From: a virus
Lineage: Duplodnaviria > Caudoviricetes
Direction: 5' to 3' (one strand)
Virus record (IMG/VR): IMGVR_UViG_3300031885_000017
Location: 1 to 56,227 of that record
Length of the DNA stretch: 56,227 bases
Made by a program: the position numbers and the translations under genes. How positions within the stretch are numbered: position 1 is the first letter of the stretch; every line of letters starts with the position of its first letter. The notes under the pieces were generated by a model. That model ran no database searches and was not told where the DNA came from. It was given only the letters and a program-made list of their open reading frames with translations. This document shows, piece after piece, positions 7,403-52,210 of the stretch.

Positions 7403-7486
7403 TCGGGCGGCGACCCGTTGAACCTCCGGGGCGGCCGGGCCATCGGCCCGTAAAGGGCCGCCCCGAATTGTTAGAAGGGAGAGAGG

Positions 7487-8101
7487 ATGGCGACGTTTGC
7501 TGATCTAACGGCGGGGGTGGCTCTCCGTTGCCATGACTCCGGCAAGCTGGAGTTGACAGACACGCAGTATGGCTTGCTTGTGAATCAAGCAATCGACGAT
7601 CTTGCAGCCGAGCAAATCGTCACACCCCTGGCCGAGGATGAGTCTCTAACCCTCGCCGCCAATGTCTGGGATTACACGGTTCCGGCTGACTTCGCCTACA
7701 TAAAGGAACTGCGCCTGGAGTCGGCGGCTGCCTCCAGCAAGTACCCCAACGTCATCCACCCATCCCTCTGGCGTCTAACCATCGAGACCACCACTACCGC
7801 CATCATCAAGTTCGACGAGAACGAGTTTACGCCTACCGCCGGTCTGCACCTCAAGGTCATCGGCCAGAAGCGCGTGGCTCAGTTGAGTGGGGTTCTCGTT
7901 GCGGAACCCGGCCTGGAGTCCTTCATCCGCGAGCGGGCCATTGGCTACGCGGCGGACATCCTGGCTGGCGGCGTATCGGAACTGTCGGCCTGGCGGCGGG
8001 CCCTGGTCCAGGAGGCTTGGACGAGATCCAACCTCATACTTCAGAGGATTCCGCGGGAGTGGCGGCCCTTGCCTGATTCCAAGCGTGTTCCCGGTCGCTA
8101 A
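7487..8101 (+). CDS. Head-tail adaptor/ring protein, paralog 1
   Basis: MATFADL..VNQAIDDL..YTVPADF pattern typical of adaptor proteins; paralogous to 8819-9472. Confidence 0.65.
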   Translation: MATFADLTAGVALRCHDSGKLELTDTQYGLLVNQAIDDLAAEQIVTPLAEDESLTLAANVWDYTVPADFAYIKELRLESAAASSKYPNVIHPSLWRLTIETTTTAIIKFDENEFTPTAGLHLKVIGQKRVAQLSGVLVAEPGLESFIRERAIGYAADILAGGVSELSAWRRALVQEAWTRSNLILQRIPREWRPLPDSKRVPGR

Positions 8102-8113
8102 TGGGGGAGAGAG

Positions 8114-8818
8114 ATGCCTGAGACTGAGGAAGAACTGAAGGCGGCGCGTGGTCGCGCCATGATCAACAAGCTGGAGGCGGATGCGGAGAAGGCCCGCGCC
8201 GAAGCCAGCACTGCCCGCGCCCAGACCCGTTGCGCGGAGACCGCGGCCGAGATCGGCATGATTAGCCTGGAGCGTGAGCGCCGCAAGGAGAAAGAGGAGC
8301 TGGCCACCAACAAATACCACCACGTCTACCACTTCACCTCCTCGGTGGATGGCCGCTCGGTGGAGGTTTGTATGGATCGCTTGGCTTATTGGTCTAGGAC
8401 AGAGCCGGGGTGCGCCATCGAGATCGTCTTCACCTCGCCCGGTGGCGCCGTCATCGATGGACTGGCGCTCTTCGACTTCATCCAGGAGCTACGGCGGAAG
8501 GGCCACTGTGTCACCACCAAGGCTTTGGGGATGGCCGCGTCGATGGCTGGGATCCTACTCCAGGCGGGCACCAGGCGCGTGATGGCGACGGAGAGCTACG
8601 TCTTAATCCATGAGATCAGTGCCGGGGCCGTGGGCAAGATCGGCGAGATCGAGGATGAGGTGAAGTTCATCAAGAAGATACAGGGTCGGATCCTCGACAT
8701 CTTCGCCTCTCGCTCGAAGGTTCCCCGTGCCTACTATGCCAAGCGGTGGAACCGGACGGACTGGTGGTTGGATAGTTCCGAGTGTCTGAAGATCGGCTTT
8801 GTGGACGAGGTGGAATAG
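8114..8818 (+). CDS. clpP: ClpP-like (S14) serine protease with N-terminal coiled coil
   Basis: SPGG, AASMAG (catalytic Ser), LIHE (His), DWWLDSSECLKIGFVD (Asp). Confidence 0.92.
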   Translation: MPETEEELKAARGRAMINKLEADAEKARAEASTARAQTRCAETAAEIGMISLERERRKEKEELATNKYHHVYHFTSSVDGRSVEVCMDRLAYWSRTEPGCAIEIVFTSPGGAVIDGLALFDFIQELRRKGHCVTTKALGMAASMAGILLQAGTRRVMATESYVLIHEISAGAVGKIGEIEDEVKFIKKIQGRILDIFASRSKVPRAYYAKRWNRTDWWLDSSECLKIGFVDEVE

Positions 8819-9472
8819 ATGGCCACGACTTTGGGTAGCCTGAAGCGTCACATCGCTGCGAAGATACACGATCCACAGTTCATCTCTGTGGGCGAGGGGT
8901 TGATCGAGGGCTTCATCCAGGATGCCTACGACGACCTGAAACTGACCGGCTGGCTCTTGCCCGTAGAAGAGGATGAATCCATCACGATGGCGGCGGACAC
9001 CTACTCCTATGCGGTGCCTGCCAACTTTGCCTACATCTACATGCTCCTCGAAGAGGACTTCGCCACGCCCGGCCAGTACGACTACTTCATCCCGGATAAC
9101 TCTTGGCGTCTGGGCTACGATGCGGGTGTGCCTGTCTTCCTGTTCAACTCCTTGGCCTGGGGGCCGACCGCGGGTAAGAAGATCAAGATCGTCGGCCAGC
9201 AGCGCCCGACGGTGCCACTCGTAGACGCCACAGCCATCGAGGACGGCTTCGTGTCCTTCATCCGGATGAGGACTGAGGCCTACGCCATGCTCTACCTGGC
9301 GGCCGTCCCTGTGGAGGAATCCACCCCGGAGTTGCTGGAGAAGCGAATCGCAATCGCCAACGTGCGTATCGGCACGGCCAACGCTCTCATGGCGGCTTCC
9401 GAGCGGGCCCTGGCCCACCACCCGGCCGAGTATCGCGTAAGGCCCAGCTCAAGACACGTACCCACACGGTAG
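8819..9472 (+). CDS. Head-tail adaptor/ring protein, paralog 2
   Basis: EDESITMAADTYSYAVPANFAYI vs EDESLTLAANVWDYTVPADFAYI; similar C-termini. Confidence 0.65.
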   Translation: MATTLGSLKRHIAAKIHDPQFISVGEGLIEGFIQDAYDDLKLTGWLLPVEEDESITMAADTYSYAVPANFAYIYMLLEEDFATPGQYDYFIPDNSWRLGYDAGVPVFLFNSLAWGPTAGKKIKIVGQQRPTVPLVDATAIEDGFVSFIRMRTEAYAMLYLAAVPVEESTPELLEKRIAIANVRIGTANALMAASERALAHHPAEYRVRPSSRHVPTR

Positions 9473-9487
9473 GCGGGGAGGTGTGCG

Positions 9488-11419: not shown

Positions 11420-11428
11420 GGATAATTC

Positions 11429-11974: not shown

Positions 11975-11976
11975 AC

Positions 11977-17452: not shown

Positions 17453-17453
17453 A

Positions 17454-18833
17454 ATGGCGCGACTTGACGCTGACGGTTGGGTGAAGCGCGATGGGCTAGA
17501 GGGCATCTACCCGCGTAATGTCGAGGCGCCGTCCTTTGTGTCAGCCACCGAGCCGGTGCTGACAACCTACGCCTCGGCCAACGTGGACACGGACAAGCTC
17601 GTGGGCAACGTGGCGGCAAATACCCGCCGCGCTCAGGGGTTCAAGATTGCCGGAGACGCCAGCGTTGCCCAACTCCGCATCTGGGCCAAGAAGGTAGGGC
17701 TTCCTGGTGATAACCTGACCGTGCGGATATACACGGATGACGGCACAGGCAAGCCTAGCGGAACGGCGGTCGGCACCGCATTGACTTTCAATGGGTCACT
17801 CCTAACGACGAGCTATGCGTGGCGGGCCTTCGGGTACACCACTCTGCCCAGTTTGACGGCGGGCGTGCAATACCACCTGGTCGCCTATCGGTCGGGTGCC
17901 GTGGACGCCGCTAACTACTACGTGTGGGGCGTTGACGCTTCCGCGCCGTCCTATGCTGACGGCCAAGGCGCGGTATATGATGGTGCGACCTGGACTTCGG
18001 AGGCGACCGACCATGCCTTCGAGATCTACGGCACTAGCGCCTGGGCCTGGCCAGCCAGCTACACGCAACTTGTGGCGGCGACGGTAACGCCTTTCGTGCC
18101 GGTCTCGGCGCACGTCGCCATGCGGTTCGACTGCTACGTGACTGGCGTTATCCCCACCATGATAGAACTGGAAATAGCAACTGGGGCGGCTGGCAGCGAG
18201 GTGCTACTGGGTCGATTCTCGGAGGCGCTACTGGCCTACCAGTCGGTTGCTGGCGGTAGCACCGGCATCAAGATAAACAAAACCTATCCGCTGAGTCCGG
18301 CCCTGATAGCATCCGGGGCCCGCATCGCAGCCCGCATTAGGGTGTCCGTCAGCGACTCGAACGCCCGCGTCCGGGCAGCCTGCTACCTGAGCGGCTATGA
18401 CGGCGGCAACGTGCCCATCATGTACCCTCTCTACCCCTTCCGGCAGCACCTGTCCGGCATTGAGGCCGGTATCTCCAAGACTGCGCCGATGGGAGCACCC
18501 GTCACCGTGACCCCAGCCGCCTTCCCCAATTACGGGTCATACGTCCAGATTTGGGCAGCAGCGGACTATGACTGCATCGTGCATGGGGCCACGAGGTCAA
18601 CCCCATCCTCTATCTCCGACTACGGACTCTACCTAGGGTTCGCCACGGGCGCGGCGGGAGTGGAGGTGCCCAGGGCCATCCTGCCATTCCCAGCCGTGGG
18701 CACTACGATGCTTAGTGAGGTAGGTACACAACTGCTGCGGATACCCTTCATCGTCAAGAAGGGTGAGCGGCTGGCTATTGCGGCGACAGGGGGTGCCCCC
18801 ACCACGTTTGAAGTGCTGTCTGAGGAATTGTGA
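17454..18833 (+). CDS. Putative receptor-binding/tail tip protein
   Basis: Internal duplication (ATGAAGSEV/ATGAAGVEV) plus jelly-roll-like insert (AQGF..LTVRIYTDDGTGKP). Confidence 0.6.
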   Translation: MARLDADGWVKRDGLEGIYPRNVEAPSFVSATEPVLTTYASANVDTDKLVGNVAANTRRAQGFKIAGDASVAQLRIWAKKVGLPGDNLTVRIYTDDGTGKPSGTAVGTALTFNGSLLTTSYAWRAFGYTTLPSLTAGVQYHLVAYRSGAVDAANYYVWGVDASAPSYADGQGAVYDGATWTSEATDHAFEIYGTSAWAWPASYTQLVAATVTPFVPVSAHVAMRFDCYVTGVIPTMIELEIATGAAGSEVLLGRFSEALLAYQSVAGGSTGIKINKTYPLSPALIASGARIAARIRVSVSDSNARVRAACYLSGYDGGNVPIMYPLYPFRQHLSGIEAGISKTAPMGAPVTVTPAAFPNYGSYVQIWAAADYDCIVHGATRSTPSSISDYGLYLGFATGAAGVEVPRAILPFPAVGTTMLSEVGTQLLRIPFIVKKGERLAIAATGGAPTTFEVLSEEL

Positions 18834-18924
18834 GCAAGTCTAAGAAACGACAACAGGCCGAACGCAAGCAACGGCGCCAGCCTGCTGTTCCCACCAAGGG
18901 CAAGAAGCAGAAGAAGCCTGGGCG

Positions 18925-19329
18925 TTAGTCCGCGGACGGCTTCGCCTCAGCCTGCGCCTTCGGCAACCCCGCCCTCTGGATCTCCTCTAGTGCGCCCTGC
19001 ACACGCTCCACCTCATCGGCCAGGTGTGCTACCAGAAGCTCCTGGAGCCGTAGGCCTTCCCGCGCCTGCTCGACGATGGATCGCTGTGTTGGGGTATCCG
19101 CGGTCTTGAGGGCTTCTTCGTGCCGCGCCACCAGGCGCCGCTGGTTCTCCATCCCAAAGAAGGAGTCCACGAGCCTCTGCTCCAGCTCCTTCTGCTGCGC
19201 CAGGAGCCGTTCCTGGCGTACCGTCGGGTTGATCTTCTCCAGGATCGCCCGGATTCTCTCGTCTGCGGTTGGCATGTTCTTCACCTTCCTAAACTTGATA
19301 GCTCTGCGCTGGGCCCTATTCACGGCCAC
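18925..19329 (-). CDS. Coiled-coil hypothetical protein
   Basis: NRAQRR N-terminus, heptad pattern. Confidence 0.6.
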   Translation of the reverse strand: MAVNRAQRRAIKFRKVKNMPTADERIRAILEKINPTVRQERLLAQQKELEQRLVDSFFGMENQRRLVARHEEALKTADTPTQRSIVEQAREGLRLQELLVAHLADEVERVQGALEEIQRAGLPKAQAEAKPSAD

Positions 19330-19520: not shown

Positions 19521-19538
19521 GCCTCACCTCACCTCACC

Positions 19539-20009
19539 TCACCTGACACTCTTCCTGGCTGGTTGTTTGGCCGTACCTTTTGTGTTCGGGACGCCGCTGG
19601 AGTGGTAGCCATACTTGGGGCGGCGCCGCTCTAGGTAATGGGATACAAGATCTACGATTCGTTCCTGCTGCTCGTTGTAGGTTTCCAGCTCCTTCTTCGT
19701 GCGGCACTTCCGAAGGAACGCATCAAGAGGAGCAAACAGGAGGACATGCAGCGCCTCATGGACAGCAAGTTGCTCTAGGGTTTCGGCATCTGCTTGGTCT
19801 ACGACATCCCTACGACAGGTAAGGTTCGCCCAGGCATAAGGGTAGCCATGAGTTACACGGCAGTCTGGTTGGTCGGAGTCCGTACTTGGGTCGTCGAACT
19901 GATCCACGAATGAGACACGGAGGGCATATTGCTGGAGGAAGCCCAGCCAGCGCAGGACACCCTCGGTGGCCTCCTCAACCTTCTTGGCCCGGCTCTTGTC
20001 GCTTGGCAA
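19539..20009 (-). CDS. HExxH metallopeptidase-like protein
   Basis: AVHEALHVLL with downstream E. Confidence 0.6.
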   Translation of the reverse strand: MPSDKSRAKKVEEATEGVLRWLGFLQQYALRVSFVDQFDDPSTDSDQPDCRVTHGYPYAWANLTCRRDVVDQADAETLEQLAVHEALHVLLFAPLDAFLRKCRTKKELETYNEQQERIVDLVSHYLERRRPKYGYHSSGVPNTKGTAKQPARKSVR

Positions 20010-20011
20010 GG

Positions 20012-27170: not shown

Positions 27171-27259
27171 GGGCTCTCTCCCTTCGGGGTAACAGGCCTA
27201 CGGCGGCTCGCCGCCCACCGTGGGCCCTTCTCACACTTTCAGGGTAACATATTTCGCTG

Positions 27260-34070: not shown

Positions 34071-34194
34071 CTCTCTCCCTCCGAAGGTCGGGGTTCGCCG
34101 CCCCTATGTTATGGTCTGCGGCAGGTAGGCCTACGCGCACGTGCAGCCTGGGCCAACCCACCCTACCGTCCTCGGTCCACCTGCCGCGAGAACC

Positions 34195-35668: not shown

Positions 35669-35687
35669 GCTCTCTCCCTTCCTTTAG

Positions 35688-39115: not shown

Positions 39116-39542
39116 CTCTCTCCCTTCGCCTTGCGTTGTGTTCCTGTAGGTGTTTGGCGCGTGTCCTCCACGCCAAGTTGGTGTCGCAGTTGTGGGCGGG
39201 GTTCAGATCATTGTGGTGGATGATCTGCCGCGGGTCTTTCCACCGAGCATCCGGCGTCGGCTGCTTCGACCACGCCGCCATCACCAGCCGTTGCACGGCA
39301 ATAAACAAGGCTTTGGGCCGCACCTTGTCGGTGTTCCGCAACCTGTCGCCGTTACCCGGCGGCATATAGACGTAGAGGTGGCCGTCCGGCCTCAGTACAG
39401 GTTTGATGATCCGGCCCGCGTAGGTGCCCTTGCCCGCCGTGTCCCGCCGCACCCTGCCCAGGTTGGAGGCAACGTAATCCGGGACGCCCGGTATCCGTTT
39501 GAACTCCTCCGGCCGTTGGCAGCAGGGGCCGAAAATAGCCAC
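39033..39542 (-). CDS. NUMOD4-HNH homing endonuclease
   Basis: FKRIPG..YVASNLGRVR; VQRLVMAAW; IHHNDLNPAHN...NL. Confidence 0.85.
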   Translation of the reverse strand: MAIFGPCCQRPEEFKRIPGVPDYVASNLGRVRRDTAGKGTYAGRIIKPVLRPDGHLYVYMPPGNGDRLRNTDKVRPKALFIAVQRLVMAAWSKQPTPDARWKDPRQIIHHNDLNPAHNCDTNLAWRTRAKHLQEHNARRRERDADDTDGREPKVFRVRPEIRVEPDPWE

Positions 39543-39970: not shown

Positions 39971-40026
39971 CTTCCCCCTTTATTTAGGTGTGATGTACTT
40001 TACTCAAGAGACCTATGCCCAAACCA

Positions 40027-40216
40027 CTAGCATTAGTAGGGAGGCGCCCCCTACGCGTGCCATTCTAAGCCTAGCGTTATTAGGGGCTGAAGCTGGACTC
40101 TAAGGGATGACCCCTTCTCCTCGGTTCTAGTCTACCTCTATTAGGATGACCTGTCAATCCCTAATAAAGCAAAAGTGCGGCTTCGGAAAGGCTAACCATT
40201 GTGATCATTATTAGGG
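40027..40216. promoter_or_regulatory. Operator-like motif cluster (5 copies)
   Basis: Consensus CTAGCNYTATTAGGR at 40027, 40071, 40132, 40159(-), 40202. Confidence 0.7.
40129..40157 (-). promoter_or_regulatory. Sigma70-type promoter of replication operon
   Basis: TTGACA-17-TAGACT. Confidence 0.75.
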
Positions 40217-41132
40217 ATGCCCCCCGCCGTCAGCGGCAGGGATGGCCTAGCGGGCCTCCTCGCCTACTTCGGTCTCTGGTCCCACTGACGGCTCAAAGAA
40301 GTCGATTAGTGCCATGCCAACACCCGGCCAGTCAGCGAAGACCAGTACGCGGCGCGGTCTGAGTAACCCGCCCCCAGCATCGTCTAGTTCCTCAACCGAG
40401 TAGCCATTAGCGACCTGAACGACTACCGCCACCCGACTTACAGGCAATAACATCTTTCTCACTCCTTCTCCCCTTCAGCGGGGGACAGCAGGGCCGCGAG
40501 GCGGGCAGCCACTTCTTCCCAGTGGGCTTCGGTTCCGCCCTGCCCGTGCGCCAAGCCGTAGGCGTCGTCGAGCACCGCATGGCCGAAGGCGAGGGCGGCG
40601 GCCACATCGTCATGGCAGGTATGTGGTGTTCCGGCACGAGCAGCCATTTGTGTTATCAGGCCATCCCCACAGCGGGGGCAATGACTCTGAGCAACGCGCT
40701 TGACGTTGGCTACTGTGTCCTCAATCGTCATGGCTGGCCTCCTATAAACTGAGCTACTTTCGCTTTATAGCGGAGAACGGCGACGGCAATCCGCACTTTC
40801 GCTAGTGCTAGTGCGCCTTCATACGGAATCAACGGCTTCCACCCTCCGGGGGCTCCGCAGTCTGCGGAGCGAGCAGGGCACGTACCATTGCCTTCCAGTC
40901 CACCCAGCCCAGATGGTTCACGACGATGCCCATCTGTACCGGCCAAGCTATGAGCTTCTCCAACGCCCCCACCCGCTGCTCCGCCGCCGCGAGGTCGGCA
41001 AGGAGGGCAAGGACATGAACCCGTGCCTGAATGAGACGAGCGGGCGTCACAGGTTGGGTGCCGTGTTCCCAGTAGGCCCCAATCGCCTCCCGTTCCTCAG
41101 CCGTCATCCGTACCCGGTCGCCTACCTTCAGG

Positions 41133-41390
41133 TCAGGAGTAGACATCGCCGTTCTCCTTGATCTTCATGTCCTCATACGGGGCCACCATACGCCTGTAGA
41201 GTTCCTGCTTGATGCACTCCAAGGCTCCGATGGCCTCATTGAAGTCCCGGTAGTGGGGGTGCGGTCCTAGGAAGGATAGGATCATGCTCGTGATGTTGAA
41301 GTTCAGTTGTCCTACCGTAACAGCCGCAACCCCCAGGCGCCGGGCTGGGGTGCCGAATGGCTCTCGCTCTTCGTGTGGAATATAAGGCAT
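41133..41390 (-). CDS. Conserved phage protein (DUF6899-like)
   Basis: MPYI..GQLNF.IT..GALECIKQELYRRMVAPYEDMKIKENGDV. Confidence 0.75.
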   Translation of the reverse strand: MPYIPHEEREPFGTPARRLGVAAVTVGQLNFNITSMILSFLGPHPHYRDFNEAIGALECIKQELYRRMVAPYEDMKIKENGDVYS

Positions 41391-41567
41391 GGTCTTCTCC
41401 TCCTATCGCTTCCAGAAGCGTACCTTGAAGTACAGAACCCAATGATCGGTTAGGTTGATGCCTAGGTATCGGGAATCGCCGGTCCAGAAAATGTGGCCAC
41501 GGTCCTTCCTTCGTGGGGGCATGTACCTGGCGAGCACAATCCAATTCTGGTGAAGCATCTCCCCCTC

Positions 41568-41774
41568 CTATCGTATGATGATGTGGGCCGGGCTGGACGG
41601 AACCGGGATGCGCCTGGCCGGGGCCCGGCACGGCGCCACCAGTGGACGTTCGAGATCCGGCGGCCCGGCTACAACCAGCTTGCCGGGGCACGACTGATAT
41701 TCGTCCATCTGAGCGATGGGTACGATCTTGTCGAACTTGTGGCCGCGTGGACACTCGTACTCGAAGATGGGCAT
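41568..41774 (-). CDS. FmdB-family Zn-ribbon protein
   Basis: MPIFEYECPRGHKFD..CP. Confidence 0.75.
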   Translation of the reverse strand: MPIFEYECPRGHKFDKIVPIAQMDEYQSCPGKLVVAGPPDLERPLVAPCRAPARRIPVPSSPAHIIIR

Positions 41775-41930
41775 GGCTATTCCTCTATAGCCTCTTCTTG
41801 GCGGTGCGACACTCGCACCGGGGACACCATTCTGTACCGTCCGCCAAGGTGCCCACCTTAACTGCGAGGGCCCCCGACCAACCGCAGTTCACGCAGTCGT
41901 AGCGGATCTCATAGAAAGAATCGTATGCAG

Positions 41931-42494
41931 TCAACTTGTCTTCTCTCCCTTTGGCCAGACCCGGATGCCGGTGGCCATGTCCGAATAGATCGGGGTGGTG
42001 TACCAGACCATCCAGGCACAGGTCACGGAATCTGTGTGTCCATCGCCGGTGAAGCTCATCCTGGGTAACACGATGATCAGGTCCGGCGGGTGCTCCGCCA
42101 GCCATGCCCCGCGCTCATAGGTGGGCTCCAGGAACGATAGCCTGAGCAGCAGGGCAACGCCCCCATGCGCCAGGGGAAGCATCTGCTTCAGGATCTCGAA
42201 TGCCTTGGAGAATGGCGGGTTAGTTACAACCCAGTCGAAGCCACCCTTCTGAGCATTCAGCCACACCGCCGCCGACTCGCTGGCTATGTCTAGGTGGTAG
42301 TGGGCGTCCACCTCCTGGTCGATGTCGTTGGTGGTGATCAGGTGACGCCCCCAGCCATCCTTCATGGCCTCAATCAGGTTCCCTTTCCCAACGCACGGCT
42401 CGAAGATATGGCCACCGACTGGCACGAGCCCAAAGAGCGCATCGATGGCGGTCTGCGCTTGGAGTGTGTAGTAGGTGTCGTTGTCTCTACGCAT
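41931..42494 (-). CDS. DNA amino-methyltransferase (N6-A/N4-C), orphan
   Basis: FEPCVGKG (motif I), TNPPF (motif IV), LLRLSFLE. Confidence 0.85.
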   Translation of the reverse strand: MRRDNDTYYTLQAQTAIDALFGLVPVGGHIFEPCVGKGNLIEAMKDGWGRHLITTNDIDQEVDAHYHLDIASESAAVWLNAQKGGFDWVVTNPPFSKAFEILKQMLPLAHGGVALLLRLSFLEPTYERGAWLAEHPPDLIIVLPRMSFTGDGHTDSVTCAWMVWYTTPIYSDMATGIRVWPKGEKTS

Positions 42495-42796
42495 GGAACG
42501 TCAACGTGCTCCCCATCGCCCGCTTACCGCAGACCGGGCACTCATAGACTGTGGTGCCCGCGATCCGGCGGTAGGGGTGGTTCGGGCCCCACAGGAAATA
42601 GCACCAGAGGCGCCGGAGTACGCGGTGTAAGGCCCCTCTCATTGATACCCCCTCCGGTTCTGCCGGTCCCGCTTCCGCCACTGGCGCATCTGGCGGCGGG
42701 CTCGGTAGATATGATCCTGCTCCGCCTGCGACAGGTCCGGCCAGCAAATGAGCATCGGCGATGAGAGGATGCTACGAAGGGTATGCAGCTTCACGT

Positions 42797-43135
42797 TTAA
42801 ACGCCCTCCGGCTCCTCGTCACACTGCTGTATTTCACTGAGCTTTTCCAACAGGGTGTGCGCCAAGAGAACCTGCCACCGGAAGTCACCGGCAAGCGCTA
42901 TGAGGGAGCTGGCCTTTGCTCCGTTTGGCACCGTCACCTGGGCGCCCTCCTCCATCATAATCCCGAACACCACCCCGGCTACCTTCGCAGGGTGCGTCAG
43001 GGCCTCGGTGAGAGCGGCCTGGATGTGCTCCATCGCCCGTTGTTCATCGATACCTTTGTCGTCCAGAGGGATGTGCGTCTTGGCCTCGTGGTACACCATC
43101 CCCTTGTCGCCGCCACCGTTGCCTACGTTAGCCAC
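42797..43135 (-). CDS. Hypothetical protein
   Basis: ORF with RBS GAGGAG. Confidence 0.5.
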   Translation of the reverse strand: MANVGNGGGDKGMVYHEAKTHIPLDDKGIDEQRAMEHIQAALTEALTHPAKVAGVVFGIMMEEGAQVTVPNGAKASSLIALAGDFRWQVLLAHTLLEKLSEIQQCDEEPEGV

Positions 43136-44592
43136 TGTTCAATCTCCTCCGGCCGCACTTCGGCCGTCGTGTAGGCCTTCTCCTTTTTATAGGTGCGGAG
43201 GCGCGACCGATATTGCCTCCCCAGGTAGAATCCGGTGTCGGCAAAGTCGAAGACCATCAGTCTGTCCTTTCCCGGCGCCGTCCGCATACCTCTCCCGATC
43301 CGCTGAATCTGACGGTGGGGAGCCCGGCCGCCACCGGCCAGGATCAGGTGTTCGATGTTGTAGATGTCTAGGCCCTCGTCGGCTATTACCGAAGCTACGA
43401 CGCAATCTAGGCGCCCCTGCCTCATGTCCCCCCAAATGTCCACACGTTTGTCGCCGGGCGTGGAGCCGGATGCAAAAGGGACTCCGAGAGTATCGGCCAG
43501 CAGTTGCCCGTGCTCAATCCTCTCCACGAGGATGAGCGTTGGGCCTAACTTACGGAGGGCCTGGGTGATGAGAATGATCGTATCATTGCGGCCCCTATGT
43601 TTCGTGATGCCGGTTTCGTAGGCGGTCTGGTAATCGAAGTCGATGGCCTTCCGTCCGGGCAGGGGGCCAATTAGGAATACATCCGCAGGTACAAGGCGCC
43701 CAGCCTCTATCCCCTTCTCACTGGGCAGGTGTGACACCACCGGCCCGGTCCACCCCACCACGGTCAGGTAGGTGCCTTTGTCCCCGCTCTTCGTGGGCGT
43801 GGCTGAGTAGCCAAAGCGGTAGTACGCATTGGGGAGGTGCTGCATCACGTACCCATAGGTCTCCGCCTCGACATGGTGAACCTCATCCACATGGACAGCT
43901 TGGAATTGTTGGAGCCAAGCCGCCGTTTCTCTCGCCTTCTCCTTCAACTCCGCAATCCTATCCGGTGGTTCTCTGCCAGCAGCGGCAATAATGGCGCCCT
44001 TGAGCCGTGTGTAGATGGTCTGGAACGTGGCGACGGTCAGCCCCTCTCCCTCTTCCCACCGGCCGTCGCCAACGATCCCAGCCTTGATCTTGTAGATGTC
44101 CCGCGCCCGCTCTGCGAGCTGGTAGAGCAAGTCCTTCCTGTGGACCAGCGCAATCGCAGGCACCCCCAGCCTCTTCACTATCTCCAGGAGCACATGGGTC
44201 TTGCCTGACCCAACAGGATGGTGGACAATGCCCCGGCCCGCAGCGCAGGCCGCAGTCACCGCCTGCTCCTGGTAGCCCTTGAGCTTGAGGGTGGGCTCCT
44301 CGGTAAACAGACCCCCATTGCTCGCCGGGCGGATGCGCCGGTCTTCAATACTGGCCTGGATGTCGCTGACCTTTAGGGCCTCTACCACGTGGGCCACCAG
44401 CCCGGCGGGGAACCGGCCATCCTTCTTGACTAGGCAGATGTCTCCTGACCAGTAACCAAGGCGATACGCACTCGTGTAAACGTAGCCCTTTGGCCTATAG
44501 GTGAGGGCATCCCGGACTAGCGCCTGGACTCCCGGCGTGTCGCTTTTGGCGACGGCCCAGAGGTTGTCCTTGATGACGATGGTGCAGTCCAC
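43123..44592 (-). CDS. SF2 helicase (UvsW/Res-III-like)
   Basis: PVGSGKT, DEVHH, SATP, EGLD, QRIGRGMR; start inferred at GTG 44592. Confidence 0.92.
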   Translation of the reverse strand: MDCTIVIKDNLWAVAKSDTPGVQALVRDALTYRPKGYVYTSAYRLGYWSGDICLVKKDGRFPAGLVAHVVEALKVSDIQASIEDRRIRPASNGGLFTEEPTLKLKGYQEQAVTAACAAGRGIVHHPVGSGKTHVLLEIVKRLGVPAIALVHRKDLLYQLAERARDIYKIKAGIVGDGRWEEGEGLTVATFQTIYTRLKGAIIAAAGREPPDRIAELKEKARETAAWLQQFQAVHVDEVHHVEAETYGYVMQHLPNAYYRFGYSATPTKSGDKGTYLTVVGWTGPVVSHLPSEKGIEAGRLVPADVFLIGPLPGRKAIDFDYQTAYETGITKHRGRNDTIILITQALRKLGPTLILVERIEHGQLLADTLGVPFASGSTPGDKRVDIWGDMRQGRLDCVVASVIADEGLDIYNIEHLILAGGGRAPHRQIQRIGRGMRTAPGKDRLMVFDFADTGFYLGRQYRSRLRTYKKEKAYTTAEVRPEEIEQWLT

Positions 44593-44681
44593 TACCTGCG
44601 CCAAGCCTCGATGCAGGATTCTATGATGAAGCCACTGACGATCAGCAGTCCCATGATTTCCCAGAATAAATGGGCGTCCAT

Positions 44682-44849
44682 TTAGTCCTCCTCCTCCGCT
44701 ATCACGATGCAGCCCACCTCTTCCAGCGCCGTGAGTGCCCGCCAGATGGCGGTCTTGCTCGCGTGGAGGGTGGCCTTCAACTCGTCCATCGTCCAGTTGC
44801 GGCAGGGTCCGGCCAGCAGCCGGAGTAGCCGCGCTTCTAGGGGCTCCAT
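44682..44849 (-). CDS. Winged HTH protein
   Basis: TMDELKATLHASKTAIWRALTALEEVGCI. Confidence 0.75.
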   Translation of the reverse strand: MEPLEARLLRLLAGPCRNWTMDELKATLHASKTAIWRALTALEEVGCIVIAEEED

Positions 44850-44955
44850 ACGATCCCACCAAACCAGACCTGGCTCACCAGCATCCAGACCCATGTGCCG
44901 ATGGCAGCTCCGACCACGAGGCAAGCTAGGACTAGGCCGATGATCTCCTCTTGCT

Positions 44956-45387
44956 TCACAGCAGCCACCTTTCGGCCCAACTCAATTCGGCAAGGGTGAG
45001 GTTGCTAGGGTCAAGGTAGTACCACGCGCATACCCAGGCGGCGTCTTCAAGTGGACTCTCCCTGACCGGCTCTCCGAGTTTCAGGTAGTCTTGGCCTTCC
45101 GCCGTCAGATACCAAGTCCGCAATGTGTTGTCCGGTTCCTTGTGAAGACCCTCAAGTACGACCTGGTGCTGGTGGGCATGGCAAAGCTCATGGGCCAGCA
45201 CAGCCACGGGCGCATCCGGGGAGAGTAGGATTGTCCTGGTCTCTGCGTTGTAGCCATTGGTTCCGGCGCCCATGCAGTCGCCGTTCGCTAGGCACCCATT
45301 GGGGTCTACGCGGATAACCAGGCCGGGGAGGAAACAGCCGGTCAGGAGCAGAGGGAGTAGGGCCAGGAGCCCGCGCAGGCATGTCAT
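44956..45387 (-). CDS. Lipoprotein with HExxH motif
   Basis: Lipobox LLTGC; VLAHELCHAHQ; LED. Confidence 0.65.
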   Translation of the reverse strand: MTCLRGLLALLPLLLTGCFLPGLVIRVDPNGCLANGDCMGAGTNGYNAETRTILLSPDAPVAVLAHELCHAHQHQVVLEGLHKEPDNTLRTWYLTAEGQDYLKLGEPVRESPLEDAAWVCAWYYLDPSNLTLAELSWAERWLL

Positions 45388-45519
45388 AGCGTTGCCCCCA
45401 TGAGCGACGGCTCCTTGCACCTGCGCCCTCCGACCGGCCGGGTCGTTATCAGCGGCAGGGTGCTAATCACATCCAACACCCAGCCACAGCACAGGCAGGT
45501 CCACGTCTCGCCCCAGCGG

Positions 45520-45837
45520 TCACGGTCGTACCAGAAGTTCTCTTCCCCTTCTCGGCCGCAGTGTCCGCACTGGCTGGGCCTGGACTTCATGGCCGCCTTC
45601 GATGGTCTGTAGGCTCCTATGCGGGGCATGGCGGGGTCTCTCTCCCTTCAGCCGGTAGGCTGTCAGAATCGTCTCGTCTCTAACGACGACGGCCAGCCCA
45701 CCGCGGCAAAGCACTAGCTTCCCGTCCGGCCGCTGGCCGCTCCACTCAGGGTCTTCGACTACGGCATCCGCCTCGCCGGGTAAGATGTCGTGGTCAGCCA
45801 TTCTCGAAAAAGCGTGGGCGCTAATACGGAGTCCCGT
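45520..45837 (-). CDS. DUF4258/BrnT-like RNase-fold protein
   Basis: ISAHAFSRM..I..V..P..VVV..ILTAY; inferred ACG start. Confidence 0.6.
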   Translation of the reverse strand, partial: TGLRISAHAFSRMADHDILPGEADAVVEDPEWSGQRPDGKLVLCRGGLAVVVRDETILTAYRLKGERPRHAPHRSLQTIEGGHEVQAQPVRTLRPRRGRELLVRP

Positions 45838-45901
45838 GGCCCTCTCCCTTCAAGTGGCAGTGGAGGCTGCTTGTCACCCGCCTCGCCGGTCGGGTGGGCA
45901 G

Positions 45902-46126
45902 TTAGTCCTCCACTCTAAGGAAATTATACGTCTCAGGGTGGGTTCTGATCAAGCGATGGAAAGCCGATCCTACCGAATCGGCTCCGATCAGCGCCGCGTG
46001 GGTCTCCGGCTCGACGTTCAAGTAGTCGTAAGTTGCCCCGCTCTTGAACGTCACCCGGAGCCTCTTGTCCTCGGCGTCGTAGCCGATGGCTGCGATGTTG
46101 GAGGATTCAACTGCTTTCATGTCCAT
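45902..46126 (-). CDS. KTSC domain protein
   Basis: VESSNIAAIGYD..L.VTFKSGATYDYLNV..ADSVG. Confidence 0.92.
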   Translation of the reverse strand: MDMKAVESSNIAAIGYDAEDKRLRVTFKSGATYDYLNVEPETHAALIGADSVGSAFHRLIRTHPETYNFLRVED

Positions 46127-48434
46127 CGTTGCTCTCTCCCTTCCTGCTGAATCCCCGCCGGTCACTTGCCGACAGTCCCCGCCGTCGGGCAACGCGGGCG
46201 GGCTTCTCATGCTGCGCTATCGGGTGGCTCATGCGCCCGTATTCCTTAGTCCCCGGTTTGGTCTTCAATCTCTGCCTTCTTCTTTGCCAGGTGCCAGCCG
46301 CCACAGGACAGACACTCGACCTGTAACCCATCAGTACCGCACCGGGCGCCAGCTAAGTCTCTCCCGGTTCCGCCACAGTCGGCACAACAGAGCGGCGGGC
46401 GCGGCCCGATGTTGATGGTTGGGTTCGCCGGTTTTGCCTGCCGGGGCACCGGCTTGACCTGCCAGGGCGCGGTGTCGTACTCCACTTCTCGGACGCGACT
46501 GATTCCTGTTCGGTATCGAACTGGGTCGGTGCTCCGTAGGTGGTGGCCACCACCGCCAGTTGACGTTCGGGGAGGGATGCCCCTAAGCATTGGCCCCCTT
46601 CTCCTTTTGGTAGCGTCTCACTTTCAGGATGGCCCGGCGGTGGGGCCAGCATCGGTCGCAGAACAGGAGGCCGCCGGGTTCGTTCGGGTAGCGGTAGACT
46701 AGACGCAGCCCGCCTGGGCACCGGCGGCTCCTGCCCTGGCAGAAGTCTATGATCCCCTCACCCTTGCCGTTCTCGGTCACTCCGGATCCTCAACAAGCTC
46801 GTCTCCAACCAGTTGCAAGGCCGATATGATCTCTTCAGCCTTAATGGTCTCGGAGGCGGTGGTGACGGCCTCTAGGTAGGCTTCGGGGTCGTCTGCCACG
46901 TCGATGGCAAGGCCTTCGACCTCAACCTCTACCTCAGCGTGATAGGTCAATCTGATCTTCATGTCTCTCCTCTCACGCCCAGAGCCCGTAGGCTTCGAGC
47001 CAGTCCCAATGCCAGAAGAACGTGAGTCCGCCCCGGTGCTGGTTCAGCATCGCCTCACCACATGGGATGCAGACCCGCGCCCCGTAGTATCGGACCTCGT
47101 TCGGGCCGACGTGCGGTGAGCCGCAGAGGTAGCACTTCACCCCTGATCCTCCTCCGTCTTGATGAAGTCCAGGGCCATCCGCTCCCCGGCGGTCGCCTTC
47201 CGCACCCGTGTCTTGTTGGTGCGGAGTTCCAGGTCGGCGGCCACCATCTCTATGTTGTCGGCGATGGCTTCCGCTTGCCCTGGGGTGTCTGCCTCGACGT
47301 AGCAGGTCTCCTCCCACACGTAGGTTACGACGTACTTGGTCACGACTTGGCCTCCTCTTTATCCTCCGGCTGCAACACGTCGATGTGGTGGCCCTCGAAG
47401 ATGGCGACGGCCAACCCCTCCTCCCTATCCTGGGCATAGGTGATTGAGGCGGCAATGGCCCCCGCTATACAGGTTGCCTCCACCCAATCGACCGCTGACT
47501 GCTTGTCTTCCCAGACTGTAACGACTGTGTACTTCATGTCCCTCGTTCCCTTCTGCCCTTGCGGGCCGCTATATCCCGACAGAATGGGCAGATGTCGGCG
47601 TATGCTTCCGGCGGCCCCATGTGGGCCACCTCGTAGTAGTGGGCTAGGGCCTGTTTCACTTCTTCGACGTTCCGGGCGTTGGCTGGTCGATAGTCGCCGG
47701 TGGAGATTCTGTAGCCGTTGCCCCGGTGGTAGACTTTGAACATCACTTGACCTCCAATCCGGCGGCCTCCATGCCGTCTACGATGTCCTGGACGTAGCGG
47801 CGCTCTGCTACCACGGTCGGGTAGTAGGGCCGATAGCCGTTGTCTTTGCCGATGTGCTGGTCTATCCAGTTGCGCCCGGCCTGGGTTGCGGGTGCCAGCA
47901 GGAAGACGCTCCCGCCGCCCGTAACATTAATGTCTGCCGTTTTTCCGGTCATGCTCTGCCCCTTCCTCCCACCGCCCGCCCGCTGTTGAAGGCCTCTGCC
48001 CCGTCGCCGATGTCGGCTTGCAGCCTTCCCTTCAGGTCATTCAGGCGGGCGATTGCCTGCTCTACGTTCCGGTTGTGATTGATCGCTTCGTCTTCACACG
48101 CCCTGTTGAGCTGACTGAGTGCCGAGTCAACAAAGCGCAGAAGCTCACGCGCCCTCGTTAGACCCACGTCTTGGCCTCCTCTATCGCCGTCTTCGCCAGT
48201 CCTGCCGCCCGCTGTATGGCCTCCTGTACGTCAACAGAGAGGCCCTTCCAGGATCGCAAGTAGGGCAATGCTGCTTCGAGCGCCGCCAGGAGTTTGGTGT
48301 TGCGATCCCGTAGACGATCCCGTTCCTCTTCGATTGTGACTGGCCCCTTGATCAGTCCACCCATAACTTACCTCCCTTCTGTTTCAGATTCTGGCGCTGC
48401 CACGTCCTGGGATGTGTTTGGGGCCATCCTGGGT

Positions 48435-48779
48435 CTATTCACACGCTCCTCTCAGTGCATCCAAGAGCCGTAGGGCTTCGTCACGCTCTATGCCTTCAAT
48501 GGCGACATCCTCTGTCCCATTCTCCTTTAGCGTCGCGCACGCCGTCGCCCAGATAGCCGGATCAAGCGCCATTGCTTCGCGGAAAGGTGCCGCCAATTCA
48601 TCGTCAGCAACCGCTTCAGGAATTGCTGTGGCCTCTAGGGTAGGTGTAGGCGTGCTAGCCGCCTGGGTTGCTGTGGCTGCTTCCTGTGTAGGGGCAACCT
48701 CTGGTGTCATTGGTGCTCCCCTTGAGGAGCACGCTGCCAGGATTAAGGGAATGATGGCTGCCAGCCAGAGTCGTTTCAT
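48435..48779 (-). CDS. Lipoprotein
   Basis: MKRLWLAAIIPLILAAC lipobox, Pro/Thr linker, two further Cys. Confidence 0.7.
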   Translation of the reverse strand: MKRLWLAAIIPLILAACSSRGAPMTPEVAPTQEAATATQAASTPTPTLEATAIPEAVADDELAAPFREAMALDPAIWATACATLKENGTEDVAIEGIERDEALRLLDALRGACE

Positions 48780-50032
48780 GCTACCTTCTCCTTCCTATCT
48801 CCCTTCTGCTTCAGTGCCGGTTAGGTCCAGGTGCCGAAGGGCAGACCGGCGCCGCCCCTCGTTGTCAACGTCTGCGCCGGGCACCCACCCACAGATGAAA
48901 CACCACCCGGCTTTCGCCCAGGTCGCGTCTTCAGTGGGGATGTCGTTCTCCTTGGCGCACTGCGTACAGACGTGTTGCACTACGTTGCCGTCAACTATTC
49001 TGATTAGCATGGTTTCCGCCTTACGCTACGGGGATGTTCTCTATCTCCCCCAGGTCGTACCACTCAGCCGTCTCGTCTAAATCCGGCTCGAAGATTGACC
49101 CGCCCTGTGCTATCCGATCCGCCGGGTCTATGTCCGGCGGCTCTCCGTCCGTGGTCCGGGTTGGGAAGAGGTCTACCCCATGCTTGTGCTCGTGTACGAG
49201 AATCCAGAGTTTCATTTCCTTCTCCTTGCAACTTCCTTCTCTAGCTGCTTGCTGCACCACAAGAAGCGGTGCTGGTAGGGAATGATTGAGCCGCAGATGT
49301 GGCACGGTGCGGGTTCCCGCCGTGCGAACCGGGCCGCCAGACCGTCGAAGCCCACGGGCGCGGTGTAGTTGTCCGGCGCTAGGTGGGTGCTCGCCGGGTC
49401 CGGGTAGTCCGGCCCCAGGACAAGTCTTCTCAGCGGCTCAACGATTCTCACTTCTCTTAGGCCTTCGCTCCCGGCCCGGAGGCTCTGTATCCGGGCCGGA
49501 GTGCCAGGGTCGAAGACTGGACCCGGTGAAGCCGACAATCTTATGCCGCTCGCCCTAGCGCACGCCTACCCCCTTTCCTAACTCTGGTAGGAGGCGGGCC
49601 AGCGCTTCGTACTCTAGCTTTGCCTCCCGGTCGCCGCGTTCAGCCTGTTCCTTCGCGTGATCCCTGCGGTGGGCTATCGCCTCAGTTGGACTTTCCCCAA
49701 CATGCTGTCGGGCCACTAACTCGCCAGCCAACCGATTCAGCCGCCAGGCCGCCATGTATGCCTCACTCTTCGCTTGGCCCTCTACTTCCTTCGCGGCCTG
49801 TTCGAGCCGCCACTGCCACAGGGTGCATTCGATTGTCATTGGGCAGCCTCCTTGGTGATCGCCACATGGAGGGCGGCACGGCACTCTCGGACGGTATGCC
49901 GGAGCGTACCGATCCGCTTCTCACTGTTAGCCGCCTGATGTAGCTCGTCTGCTACGATCTTCGCCACGTCTAGGAGCGTGGCATTAGGTGGTATGCGCTC
50001 ACAGAGCGGGCCAAACCCGAATCCTAGTGCGT

Positions 50033-50443
50033 TCATCCCGGCCCCCTCGCCTGAGCTTCCTTGACCGTCTCAACGATCTCCGGGACGCCGCTCTCTATGT
50101 AGCCCAGGCGGGCGTCTAGCTCCGGCCAGCCGGAGGGCTTCAGGGCAACCCAAACGTCCGGCGTGAAGTTGTAGGGCACGAAATGGGAGATGATCTGCCC
50201 GCCCCACCTTACGATGCTGAATGAGAACGCCCCCTGCCCTTTGGCATCGTCGCCATCAAACGCTTCGCCGTCCTCTAGCATTAGAGACAGGTCGATAGCG
50301 TCCTCGCCCTCGCCTACTGCTAGGTGGAAGCCGTAGTCGTCGGCGTTGTCTTCCCAGTCCTCCCCGCCCAGCTCGGCCTTCAGTGCCTTGATTGCCTGCT
50401 GGAGCCGTGGGCGGAAGTGCTTATAGGTGCTCAGGTACGTCAT
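50033..50443 (-). CDS. Acidic hypothetical protein
   Basis: RBS GAGGGGAGAG; ORF. Confidence 0.6.
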   Translation of the reverse strand: MTYLSTYKHFRPRLQQAIKALKAELGGEDWEDNADDYGFHLAVGEGEDAIDLSLMLEDGEAFDGDDAKGQGAFSFSIVRWGGQIISHFVPYNFTPDVWVALKPSGWPELDARLGYIESGVPEIVETVKEAQARGPG

Positions 50444-50668
50444 TTGCTTCTCTCCCCTCTGTGCGCTCGCCGCGCACGTTGCCGCTGGCCTACAGGTGGA
50501 AGCGCCGGGCGCTGTCGCCCGTTCTCCCATGCCGACAGGCCACGGGCTTTGCATTATTAGGATTAGCTACCCTACACCCGCATATCAGACAGGCCACCAT
50601 GCCCATGACCTCGCGCATGATGGGCCGCTGACAGCGGCAGTAGGCGGTAAAGCCCGGACTGCCCGCTC

Positions 50669-51139
50669 TCACTGCGCCACCCCTACCACTAGAGCTGCGA
50701 GCCGGTGTCCGGGTGGGTGTCCCCATACCCGGCGGGTTCCGTGATCGTAGTCCACAACGTAGCCGTGGCCTGTGTCTGCGCCGCTGATTGCGGCGGCCAG
50801 CGGCACAAGGCGGTTGCTATTCCACCGGCGTAAGAAGCCCAAGATTCGCCAGTCTGAGTAGGTGAATCCGCTGGGGCCATCACTCCGATTGCTCACGTCG
50901 CCGTCCGGGGTAAGGCTGTAGACCGTGCCATCCCGTAGGCGCATGGTGATCTGACTTGCCGCCGCTGGCCCCTTGCCATCCGCCCATGAGCCGCTGACAG
51001 CGGCAAGGTAGGCGGCACCGTTCCGGGGCGCTCCCAGACATGCACAAGTAGGGCATTGCGCCACTTGCACGATGCTCTGACAGAGCCCCCGGCAGGTGTA
51101 GAAACACCCGCAGCTTGGGCAATAGTGAACCTTGATCAC
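50669..51139 (-). CDS. Cys-rich hypothetical protein
   Basis: CPSC/CRGLC/CPTC; start-associated motif upstream. Confidence 0.5.
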   Translation of the reverse strand: MIKVHYCPSCGCFYTCRGLCQSIVQVAQCPTCACLGAPRNGAAYLAAVSGSWADGKGPAAASQITMRLRDGTVYSLTPDGDVSNRSDGPSGFTYSDWRILGFLRRWNSNRLVPLAAAISGADTGHGYVVDYDHGTRRVWGHPPGHRLAALVVGVAQ

Positions 51140-52210
51140 GGTGTCCCTCTCCCTTCAGGTGGCCGGGTTAGCAGATTCGCCGTCTGCTAGTGGCCTCTAT
51201 AGTATCGGCACGTGGGCCGGATTCTTGAATCCTCCCCCAAGACCAACAGGCCACCCTCCCCCGTGCTATACGACCTTTGCTCCTAAGCACCCCCGGCGAT
51301 AATTGTTGCCTTGATTGCCTGGGCGTGGGATATGAACTCGTCCAGGATGGCAAGCGTAAAGTCACGGGGCGAGTCTGCTACGTCTTCCTCGCAGCCGTCC
51401 AGAGCATCGACTAGGGTTTCGTAGATGGCCGCGTATTCAGACGCCCCCACCATCTTGGGGTCTGTCAGTCCGAAATCTTCCGGGTGTGCCACTGTACCTT
51501 CCCTCTTTTCTGTTTACGTTCTGGCTCGTCGTTTGTTGCTCTTGGGGTCAAACCCCACGAGCAAGCAACAAGCAAACCCAAGAGGAACCTTCTACCCCTT
51601 CTTAGCTTCCAACCGGGGCTCTAGGTAGTAGGTCACTGCCCGAACGAGCGGCTTCGACAGTCCCCCGGCAGCTCTCGCCTTCAGTGAGTACCTGGACTTG
51701 AGTGCCTTGTTGTCAACTTTGTCTTTTGGCATGGGTCAGGGCTCCTATTCAGCCTCATCCGGTTCGTACTCAGACCAATCGAAGAGGCCGATGCATCCGT
51801 ACTCGGCACCGATCTCGTCCGGGCTCTTCCAGGCGTCCGGGAACACTGGCAGGCGGTACTCCTGGTGATCGATGTCGAATACTAGTGTCTCTTGTCGGAT
51901 GCTACTCCCACCGAATCCGATGAAGTGAGCGCCGGGCGGTGCTGTCTTCTGTAACTTGGCGATCCGGCGGGTCCGATAGCCGCCTTTTCCTCTCGGCATG
52001 TTGGCTTCTCCCTCCTGCTTTGATCCTTGCCTCTGCCGCCCAGAGCCATCATTCTGGGTTTCCGCGCTCCTGGTGTCCTACTCTTGGCGCATACGGCAAT
52101 CGGCAGAGGCAAGGGCCAAAGGCCCGTATTCTGTTGTGAAGGAGGGGGGCATCCCTGCCCCTGTATGCGGCTTTTCCTTGTCGCTCTTAGTATCGGCCCG
52201 GTTGCCCCAT

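Follow-up and report, generated by a model that had tools for sequence, protein, structure and literature searches.

A purine-only 12-mer repeated before gene starts of an uncultivated sediment phage behaves like a start-associated sequence

Why would one short sequence recur, almost letter for letter, just ahead of unrelated genes in a single phage genome? The question is raised by the IMG/VR virus record IMGVR_UViG_3300031885_000017, a linear contig of 56,227 bp that was analysed as a whole (hereafter the window; CheckV completeness ~77%). Scattered along both strands of this contig are copies of an asymmetric 12-mer composed of G and A only, GAAGGGAGAGAG, most of which sit at the position of a ribosome-binding site (RBS). 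Analysis of the motif in the window and in related contigs revealed that it behaves like the start-associated sequences (SASs) of actinobacteriophages, and that it is often accompanied by an upstream stem-loop.

The 12-mer is repeated and placed before start codons

Exact copies of GAAGGGAGAGAG occur at seven sites in the window, compared to 0.00 in 100 shuffles. The number increases to 11 sites at one mismatch or fewer (0.43 expected) and to 25 sites at two mismatches or fewer (6.27 expected), and the repeated start-associated motif proposed in the initial annotation, which was made from the sequence alone, is thus real. A start codon (ATG or GTG) on the same strand follows 0-8 nt after eight of the 11 sites with at most one mismatch (binomial P=1.4e-5). 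In this test the start had to open a reading frame of at least 45 codons, and a random 12-mer position is followed by a start of this kind with a background probability of 0.137. The earlier claim of a start distance of 0-8 nt therefore describes these eight sites and fails for the remaining three. In four genomes, namely the window and the related contigs G001, G002 and G003, the start codon lies 0-8 nt downstream at 29/33 sites, and the same is true of all three sites in a further contig, L023. In total, the motif precedes about 10-13 of the ~84 genes of the window, and these genes belong to its structural as well as its replication/early portion. The usage of ATG is alike in the two groups of genes, with 8/12 for motif genes and 43/70 for the others.

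Most exact and near sites had been placed correctly before (Table 1). Two required correction, from 45842-45853 to 45840-45851 and from 51147-51157 to 51145-51156, and the former had been counted as start-associated, which it is not, as no start codon is found within 20 nt. An exact copy at 55017-55028 (+) and a near copy at 48795-48806 (-) had been overlooked. The weaker variants listed at 4856 (GGAGGGAGAGAC), 8103 (GGGGGAGAGAG) and 41941 (AAAGGGAGAGAA), together with the recA site, were all recovered.

The motif forms a class apart from ordinary ribosome-binding sites

Most genes of this phage possess ordinary sites such as TAGGAGG or GGAGGTG, located 5-13 nt from the start. The exact 12-mer is common to 6/84 gene upstreams (-26 to -1), whereas no 12-mer was found in more than two regions across 1000 composition-preserving shuffles, so that the motif is enriched over a purine-rich RBS background. 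Moreover, among 47 GGAG-bearing upstreams aligned on GGAG, with the eight flanking columns taken as independent, six exact copies were present against 0.048 expected. Both results argue for two discrete classes of ribosome sites rather than one fuzzy class. The 84 starts were typed by hand, and those at 41934, 45629, 46126 and 50443 were preferred for following the motif; the start-position test (P=1.4e-5) is independent of this hand-made list.

Pairing with the ribosome was predicted using the usual bacterial sequence for the 3′ tail of 16S rRNA, which was assumed. Against this tail, bases 1-8 of the motif (GAAGGGAG) would pair with one G-U at position 4, leaving bases 9-12 (AGAG) unpaired. 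The median predicted duplex energy is -12.65 kcal/mol for 12 motif-class sites and -12.25 kcal/mol for 20 GGAGG-class sites, and the spacing from GGAG to the start is 4-12 nt and 5-13 nt, respectively. By this model the motif would be an adequate Shine-Dalgarno (SD) sequence, not better than ordinary GGAGG sites, and its extra conservation would thus need another cause. At position 4, an A would pair better with the assumed tail, yet G is invariant in 22 distinct loci of the four genomes. As these loci were chosen at one mismatch or fewer, only their flanks are informative, and here the information content drops to ~0 immediately beyond the 12 positions, giving the motif sharp edges. In addition, 28 genes have an upstream gap of at least 40 nt; only seven of them carry the motif and 21 use other sites, which indicates that the motif is not merely a result of free non-coding space.

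Some other ribosome sites of the window are unusual in their own ways. A tandem AGGTG repeat (aggtgaggtgaggtgaggtgaggc) at 19521-19544 (-) forms an SD-like leader ahead of ATG 19520, and the neighbouring small genes at 47343 and 48167 (-) have a near-identical ribosome-site stretch, AGAGGAGGCCAAG-N-C-GTG, which suggests a local duplication. At 53780-53791 (-), an anti-SD-like pyrimidine tract, CTTTCCTCCTTC, lies just past the stop of gene 53797-54117 (-) and ahead of a GGCCCC/GGGGCC hairpin.

The motif is maintained in related contigs before different genes

The relatives comprise the IMG/VR contigs G001 (24.9 kb), G002 (20.6 kb) and G003 (53.0 kb) and the metagenome contig L023, which together with the window make five related genomes, all from similar sediment samples. 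Their polymerases are 88-91% identical at the protein level, and aligned blocks of DNA share 68-92% identity with the window. At one mismatch or fewer, G001, G002, G003 and L023 have 5, 5, 12 and 3 sites, respectively, and a reversed-pattern control gave none.

Comparison of orthologous sites revealed that the motif is kept while its surroundings change. The motif of the exonuclease gene is identical in four genomes, and the 30 nt preceding it differ at about a dozen positions. For the 57-aa gene that starts at 35668, the spacer between motif and GTG varies among genomes (1, 2 or 5 nt), and the motif is kept. The ATG directly after the 39116 motif is conserved in 5/5 genomes and the alternative GTG is not; a public gene call in the protein atlas starts that gene at residue 30. 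With the conserved start, the HNH endonuclease open reading frame (ORF) overlaps this next gene by 83 nt (39033-39115). The G003 counterpart of the 45840 orphan has the same hairpin and motif before a 68-aa gene that is missing from the window, and the counterpart of the 51145 site retains hairpin and motif ahead of a different gene.

The relatives also place the motif before genes of their own, as 9/21 of their motif-led genes have no homologue in the window. These nine include a 234-aa gene inserted in G001, a 202-aa gene inserted beside the capsid gene of G003 but on the other strand, and an 82-aa gene of G002 that lies between the recA hairpin and recA, with a motif copy on each side. Outside this group, no motif copy is present in L011-L016 and L024, the polymerases of which are more distantly related (24-42% identity). 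A scan of IMG/VR with a loose pattern of hairpin loop plus motif returned 117 mostly unrelated loci with one match each, and none outside the lineage had more than one copy of the 12-mer.

No conserved -35/-10 element or other positional conservation was seen upstream of the motif, and promoter-like matches in 40000-56227 numbered 3, compared to 3.9 in shuffles. Ahead of the inserted 202-aa gene of G003 (gene 47496), at ~7496-7540 (-) of this contig (L006), a TTGACA-N18-TATGGT sequence judged by eye ends 6 nt before the motif; with this placement, the 5′ end of the inserted gene's transcript could lie at the 12-mer or immediately upstream of it.

A stem-loop with a conserved loop and a covarying stem accompanies the motif

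Many motif copies have a GC-rich stem-loop 7-27 nt upstream, with the loop (C)GGCGA(A/G) and a stem that is different at each locus (Table 1). About half of the loci pair the motif with such a stem-loop. A GAAGG/CCTTC stem is present at the orphan copy, and further loop-conserved hairpins are found in G003 and L023.

The association was examined by two counts. In the five genomes, GGCGA located 5-55 nt upstream of a motif-like site is flanked by a stem of at least 4 bp in 11/22 cases, compared to 45/692 elsewhere (Fisher P=9e-8; orthologues not collapsed). In an alignment of 12 hairpins from nine paralogous loci, 60% of the cells pair and all eight pairs have changes on both sides, and 0/500 shuffles match either the pairing percentage or the covariation score. 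Only the register slid by -1 comes close, as expected from loops of 6 or 7 nt. The unselected GGCGA count is the fairer test of the two, because the aligned rows were picked for a visible stem. Orthologous hairpins likewise show compensatory changes around a constant loop, at the 51139 gene (compared to 28247 of G003), the exonuclease site and the 4856 site.

These stem-loops are not simply the general terminators of the phage, since no hairpin of this kind lies where the two gene arms converge (18820-18940; z 0.66). Furthermore, no T run was seen after the stem-loops. A conserved loop on a variable stem suggests a structure recognised in the form of single-stranded nucleic acid; an inverted repeat in DNA that is bound by a protein would show the reverse pattern.

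Two known classes of RNA site were compared by their consensus features and rejected: CsrA-type sites, as the hairpin loop has no GGA, and lambda-type nut/boxB sites, of which neither order nor copy number fits.

An orphan copy lies in a structured region beside the integrase gene

The exact copy at 55017-55028 resides in a 241-nt gap between two minus-strand genes, the integrase gene and ORF 54406-54855. The only ATG downstream of it is 16 nt away and opens a frame antisense to the integrase that is not kept in G003. The stretch ~54958-55035 has few differences from G003, and its flanks are diverged. In the adjacent hairpin 54912-54947, most of the pairing is kept relative to G003 via changes on both arms. 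The 197-nt region folds far better than its shuffles, with a z of -6.79 for the minus strand and -4.47 for the plus strand. Both predicted folds place the 3′ half of the motif, or its complement, in a helix with a conserved CUCUCU/AGAGAG stretch ~70 nt away.

On the minus strand, which is the strand of the neighbouring genes, this region contains the exact complement of the motif in the 3′ region of the integrase gene. Nowhere else in the window could an anti-motif RNA arise, and for this the predicted internal pairing would have to open. The region could represent an attP site, an origin or a small RNA gene; ARAGORN detected no tRNA in 54900-55096.

A gene-poor stretch of ~0.9 kb (52080-52950) separates the minus-strand early genes from short plus-strand ORFs. 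It contains a CC(C)TAATAG-N-G(C/A)TAG repeat in four copies at 52212-52384, and CAACAGC is repeated three times in tandem at ~52423-52447. By eye, these repeats look like operator or iteron sites.

A proposed start-associated sequence with a second reader, and the alternatives

How are the conservation of the 12-mer, its fixed position and its partner hairpin best explained? We favour the reading that GAAGGGAGAGAG is a lineage-specific SAS that acts on mRNA, and hold the chances for and against it to be evenly balanced. The motif would stand in for the ordinary RBS on the mRNA of a subset of genes, with its first eight bases pairing with the usual 16S 3′ tail, one G-U included, as the SD. As the invariant G4 and the AGAG tail would add nothing to this pairing, the simplest explanation is that a second partner reads the whole 12-mer. 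The partner, a phage or host RNA-binding protein or an RNA, would co-regulate the translation of the motif gene set. The (C)GGCGA(R) stem-loop, its loop conserved while the stem varies from copy to copy, would be a structured element of RNA (or single-stranded DNA) and is likely a second contact for the same factor.

Several observations weigh against this proposal. Two or three motif copies have no gene start after them, and at the G003 KTSC gene an ordinary GGAGAAGGAGA site takes the place of the motif, so that this gene can do without it. The searches brought up neither a protein nor an RNA as a candidate binding partner: Rfam at the gathering score matched no family, none of the known RNA-binding families was found among 60 scanned proteins, and a G-U-tolerant search for complements of the motif in the window returned only the opposite strands of motif copies and weak one-mismatch matches. 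The upstream gaps of motif genes do not differ significantly from those of other genes (P=0.09), and local folding does not expose the motif consistently, with a mean unpaired probability of 0.21-0.69. The 16S tail is an assumption, and the comparison with ordinary sites covers the genes of the phage. Finally, action at the RNA level is suggested by the orientation and position of the motif only.

A wider version of the SAS reading is more tentative, and we would sooner expect it to fail than to hold. Stem-loop and 12-mer might together form a two-part RNA operator of a translational regulon that spans the early, replication and structural modules of a temperate phage, with a phage protein as the reader, or else an RNA from the structured orphan copy beside the integrase gene. 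In that case, the parallel with the single reverse, gene-less copy of cluster K mycobacteriophages would suggest an anti-SAS or decoy mechanism of general occurrence.

The alternative that survives best, although we consider it unlikely, does away with the second partner: the 12-mer would be a plain strong SD with a non-folding purine spacer, and its copies would be identical through copying, by recombination at the RBS or gene conversion, with no dedicated factor. The predicted pairing of GAAGGGAG with the assumed 16S tail, about equal to that of the GGAGG class, is in line with this, as are the inability of a G/A-only sequence to pair with itself and the substitution of an ordinary SD at the KTSC gene of G003. 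Indel genes also bring the motif along (G001 4273, G003 47496 and the 82-aa gene of G002 between two copies). Simple copying should, however, preserve the flanks too, and these are randomised right next to the retained 12-mer. A plain SD also fails to account for a position 4 that is invariant, in loci chosen at one mismatch or fewer, in spite of its weaker G-U pair, or for the 21/28 genes that have free upstream space and use other sites, and it leaves the linked conserved-loop hairpin without a role.

Two further alternatives appear distinctly improbable. In one of them, the motif is a DNA site for a phage regulator, similar to the asymmetric stoperators of cluster A phages that block transcription in one orientation. 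The motif is indeed asymmetric, oriented with transcription and spread genome-wide in a phage that carries an integrase gene, beside which the orphan copy could be an operator. A block to transcription would not need the tight start distance observed (0-8 nt at 29/33 sites), nor would it need a motif that contains an SD and replaces the usual RBS, and the partner hairpins keep the loop and vary the arms, opposite to a protein-bound inverted repeat. Pope et al. 2011 likewise contrast SASs with stoperators (PMC3203893).

In the other, hairpin and motif are a mobile regulatory cassette, mainly a recombination linker for gene shuffling like the PeSLs of T4-type phages, which join a stem-loop with an expression signal as described by Arbiol et al. 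2010 (PMC2839356). Homology between the window and G003 does stop at the motif for the 51139 gene and for the 50443 gene, and it also stops at the 48795 site and the orphan 45840 site; the G002 insertion is bounded by two motif copies, and the 9/21 motif genes of relatives mentioned above are accessory. Mosaic junctions are nevertheless not enriched at motif genes, with one-sided homology at 3/12 compared to 29/70 other genes, a comparison weakened by G003 lacking most of the structural arm. Moreover, 12 bp are short for homologous exchange, and no promoter consensus accompanies the motif. A role as a recombination linker may be a side effect.

Phage T4 RegB cleaves GGAG in early Shine-Dalgarno sites, and a hairpin 7-27 nt upstream of a single-stranded purine tract with GGAG could in principle mark an RNA processing site, where an endoribonuclease cuts at or near GGAG or after the hairpin and thereby makes or destroys an mRNA 5′ end; this is very unlikely, as no nuclease candidate was found and the variable distance from hairpin to motif argues against a ruler-type cut.

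Feature catalogue and gene content of the phage

Table 1. Motif sites, accompanying stem-loops, the structured region and landmark genes in the window
Feature	Position	Strand	Context
Exact motif	7474..7485	+	1 nt to ATG 7487 (204 aa, no family match); identical in G003
Exact motif	27174..27185	-	3 nt to GTG 27170 (391-aa exonuclease, phrog_284); identical in G001, G002, G003
Near copy GGAGGGAGAGAG	34071..34082	-	0 nt to ATG 34070 (RecA/UvsX-like); orthologous G003 site is GAAGGGAGAGAG
Exact motif	35670..35681	-	1 nt to GTG 35668 (57 aa); relatives carry GAAGGGAGAGAA
Exact motif	39116..39127	-	0 nt to ATG 39115 (115 aa); within 3′ end of HNH endonuclease ORF 39033-39542
Exact motif	45638..45649	-	8 nt to ATG 45629 (81 aa)
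Near copy GAAGGGAGAGGG	45840..45851	-	orphan, no start within 20 nt
Exact motif	46132..46143	-	5 nt to ATG 46126 (KTSC-domain protein, 74 aa)
Near copy GAAGGGAGATAG	48795..48806	-	15 nt to ATG 48779, with a second, ordinary SD (GAAGGAGAAGG) between; doubtful member
Near copy GAAGGGAGAGGG	51145..51156	-	5 nt to GTG 51139 (156 aa)
Exact motif	55017..55028	+	no convincing gene; beside integrase, opposed to flanking minus-strand genes; conserved in G003
Variant GGAGGGAGAGAC	4856..4867	+	3 nt to ATG 4871 (114 aa)
Variant GGGGGAGAGAG	8103..8113	+	0 nt to ATG 8114 (ClpP-like prohead protease)
Variant AAAGGGAGAGAA	41941..41952	-	6 nt to TTG 41934 (49-aa ORF, uncertain gene)
Variant GAGGGGAGAGAA	50448..50459	-	4 nt to ATG 50443 (136 aa)
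Stem-loop GC-rich	4819..4847	+	before 4856 variant; compensatory change in G003
Two stem-loops	7404..7465	+	CGGG-CGGCGA-CCCG (7404-7417) and long GC-rich hairpin (7427-7465), before 7474 site
Stem-loop ACGGTGG-GCGGCGAG-CCGCCGT	27200..27221	-	before exonuclease site; other stem in G002 and G003, loop CGGCGAA
Stem-loop GGGG-CGGCGAA-CCCC	34090..34104	-	before recA site; in all five genomes
Stem-loop, loop CGGCGAG	45874..45896	-	before orphan 45840 site
Stem-loop GTGCGC-GGCGA-GCGCAC	50461..50477	-	directly before 50448 variant
Stem-loop TAGCAGA-CGGCGAA-TCTGCTA	51169..51189	-	upstream of 51145 site; G003 orthologue (28247) with compensatory stem changes, same loop
Structured non-coding region	54900..55096	.	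conserved, adjoins integrase; long hairpin 54912-54947, nested hairpin with CGGCGA loop 54973-55003, orphan motif with its 3′ half predicted to pair with CUCUCU upstream
SU10-type major capsid protein	507-1709		
ClpP-like prohead protease	8114-8818	+	
Family A DNA polymerase	27260-30040	-	
RecA/UvsX-like protein	33000-34070	-	
Tyrosine integrase	55097-55927	-	

The GC content is 0.60-0.62 along the entire window. In addition to the landmark genes in Table 1, the window encodes exonucleases, a primase, a DnaB-like and a UvsW-like helicase, HNH and NUMOD3 endonucleases and a KTSC-domain protein; a search for tRNA and tmRNA genes found none. The family A polymerase possesses an N-terminal extension of ~190 aa with a separate match in the viral contig L014 (residues 10-190, 38%). 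Its motifs are reminiscent of family 4 uracil-DNA glycosylases.

The phage stands far from cultured ones. Megablast with 20 kb of the window gave no match to cultured phages, and tblastn of the polymerase and the capsid protein against them gave best identities of ~25% or lower. Two scans of 185,579 bacterial and archaeal species genomes returned no host or prophage relative, and look-ups in the protein atlas provided no lead on host or function. The sequencing runs that contain a 10-kb stretch of the window are two sediment DNA metagenomes, and no RNA run is listed among them.

Comparison with known start-associated sequences and related elements

The SAS of cluster K mycobacteriophages is a 13-bp sequence, GGGATAGGAGCCC, of which a genome has 11-19 copies that typically precede starts by 3-7 bp. 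Its conservation is argued to exceed rRNA pairing, and a single reverse copy has no link to a gene start (PMC3203893). The window motif is likewise a short asymmetric repeat with an SD core, located a few nucleotides before starts in one orientation, with one reverse or orphan copy, and it is kept across relatives before different gene families. The initial annotation had named this system as the analogue, and the analogy holds on the features that can be tested, namely copy number, RBS position, orientation, rare orphans, conservation in relatives and association with unrelated genes. They differ in the consensus (GAAGGGAGAGAG here, GGGATAGGAGCCC there) and in distribution, as the cluster K SAS is confined to the non-structural arm, whereas the sites 4856, 7474 and 8103 precede capsid-module genes. 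Cluster K phages are unrelated to the window phage, the best cultured matches of which are at most 25% identical. The partner elements differ as well. The extended SAS (ESAS) of cluster K is a 17-bp imperfect inverted repeat with conserved arms, for which RNA pairing is unsupported, and its present interpretation is that of a SigA-like promoter together with an operator with an inverted repeat (PMC11373665); by contrast, the partner described here is a stem-loop with a conserved loop and a covarying stem.

In the Microbacterium phages of cluster EF, a 13-bp motif, GGGAAAGGACCCC, occupies the RBS position ten times. Directly upstream of each copy lies an element of weak conservation; it has GTAGAG at its centre and does not represent a hairpin (Jacobs-Sera et al. 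2020, PMC7302621). A motif at the RBS with an element upstream thus recurs with other sequences in unrelated phages, though the consensus differs from the one described here and the upstream element of the window is a stem-loop. Full-text literature searched for the SAS term yielded papers on cluster K and cluster EF and one on cluster O, and no such element outside actinobacteriophages in that literature.

Two other types of repeat resemble the window motif in part. The PeSL cassettes of T4-type phages combine a sigma-70 early promoter with a stem-loop over ~100 bp (PMC2839356). Both are composite intergenic repeats of a stem-loop and an expression signal, with examples near variable genes and indel boundaries; unlike in PeSLs, there is no promoter consensus in the window element, and its conserved part is the RBS itself. 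The stoperators of cluster A are 13-bp asymmetric sites that act on transcription via a repressor and are not tied to the start codon (PMC3203893). They share with the window motif an asymmetric sequence, a distribution through the genome and one orientation relative to transcription, but the window motif is tied to start codons.

The function of SASs was still called unknown in 2024-2025 (PMC11373665; PMC12699233). The present motif adds a third case that is unrelated to the other two and comes from a sediment phage that is itself uncultivated and lacks cultured relatives. This suggests that SASs are a general phage strategy and not a peculiarity of actinobacteriophage collections. It also offers two handles that are absent from the known SASs, a partner stem-loop and a presence before structural as well as early genes; the conserved loop and covarying stem of the former point to recognition at the RNA level. 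If a reader of the motif exists, the phage would have a means of marking a subset of messages for joint translational control. If the two-part RNA operator reading is true, the anti-SAS or decoy mechanism would point towards an answer as to what start-associated sequences do.

Altogether, the window motif behaves like a SAS in every aspect of behaviour that can be tested here, including repeat number, RBS position and conservation before differing gene families. It is not homologous to the known SASs, as it has another consensus, belongs to an unrelated phage, precedes structural genes too and has a covarying stem-loop as its partner.

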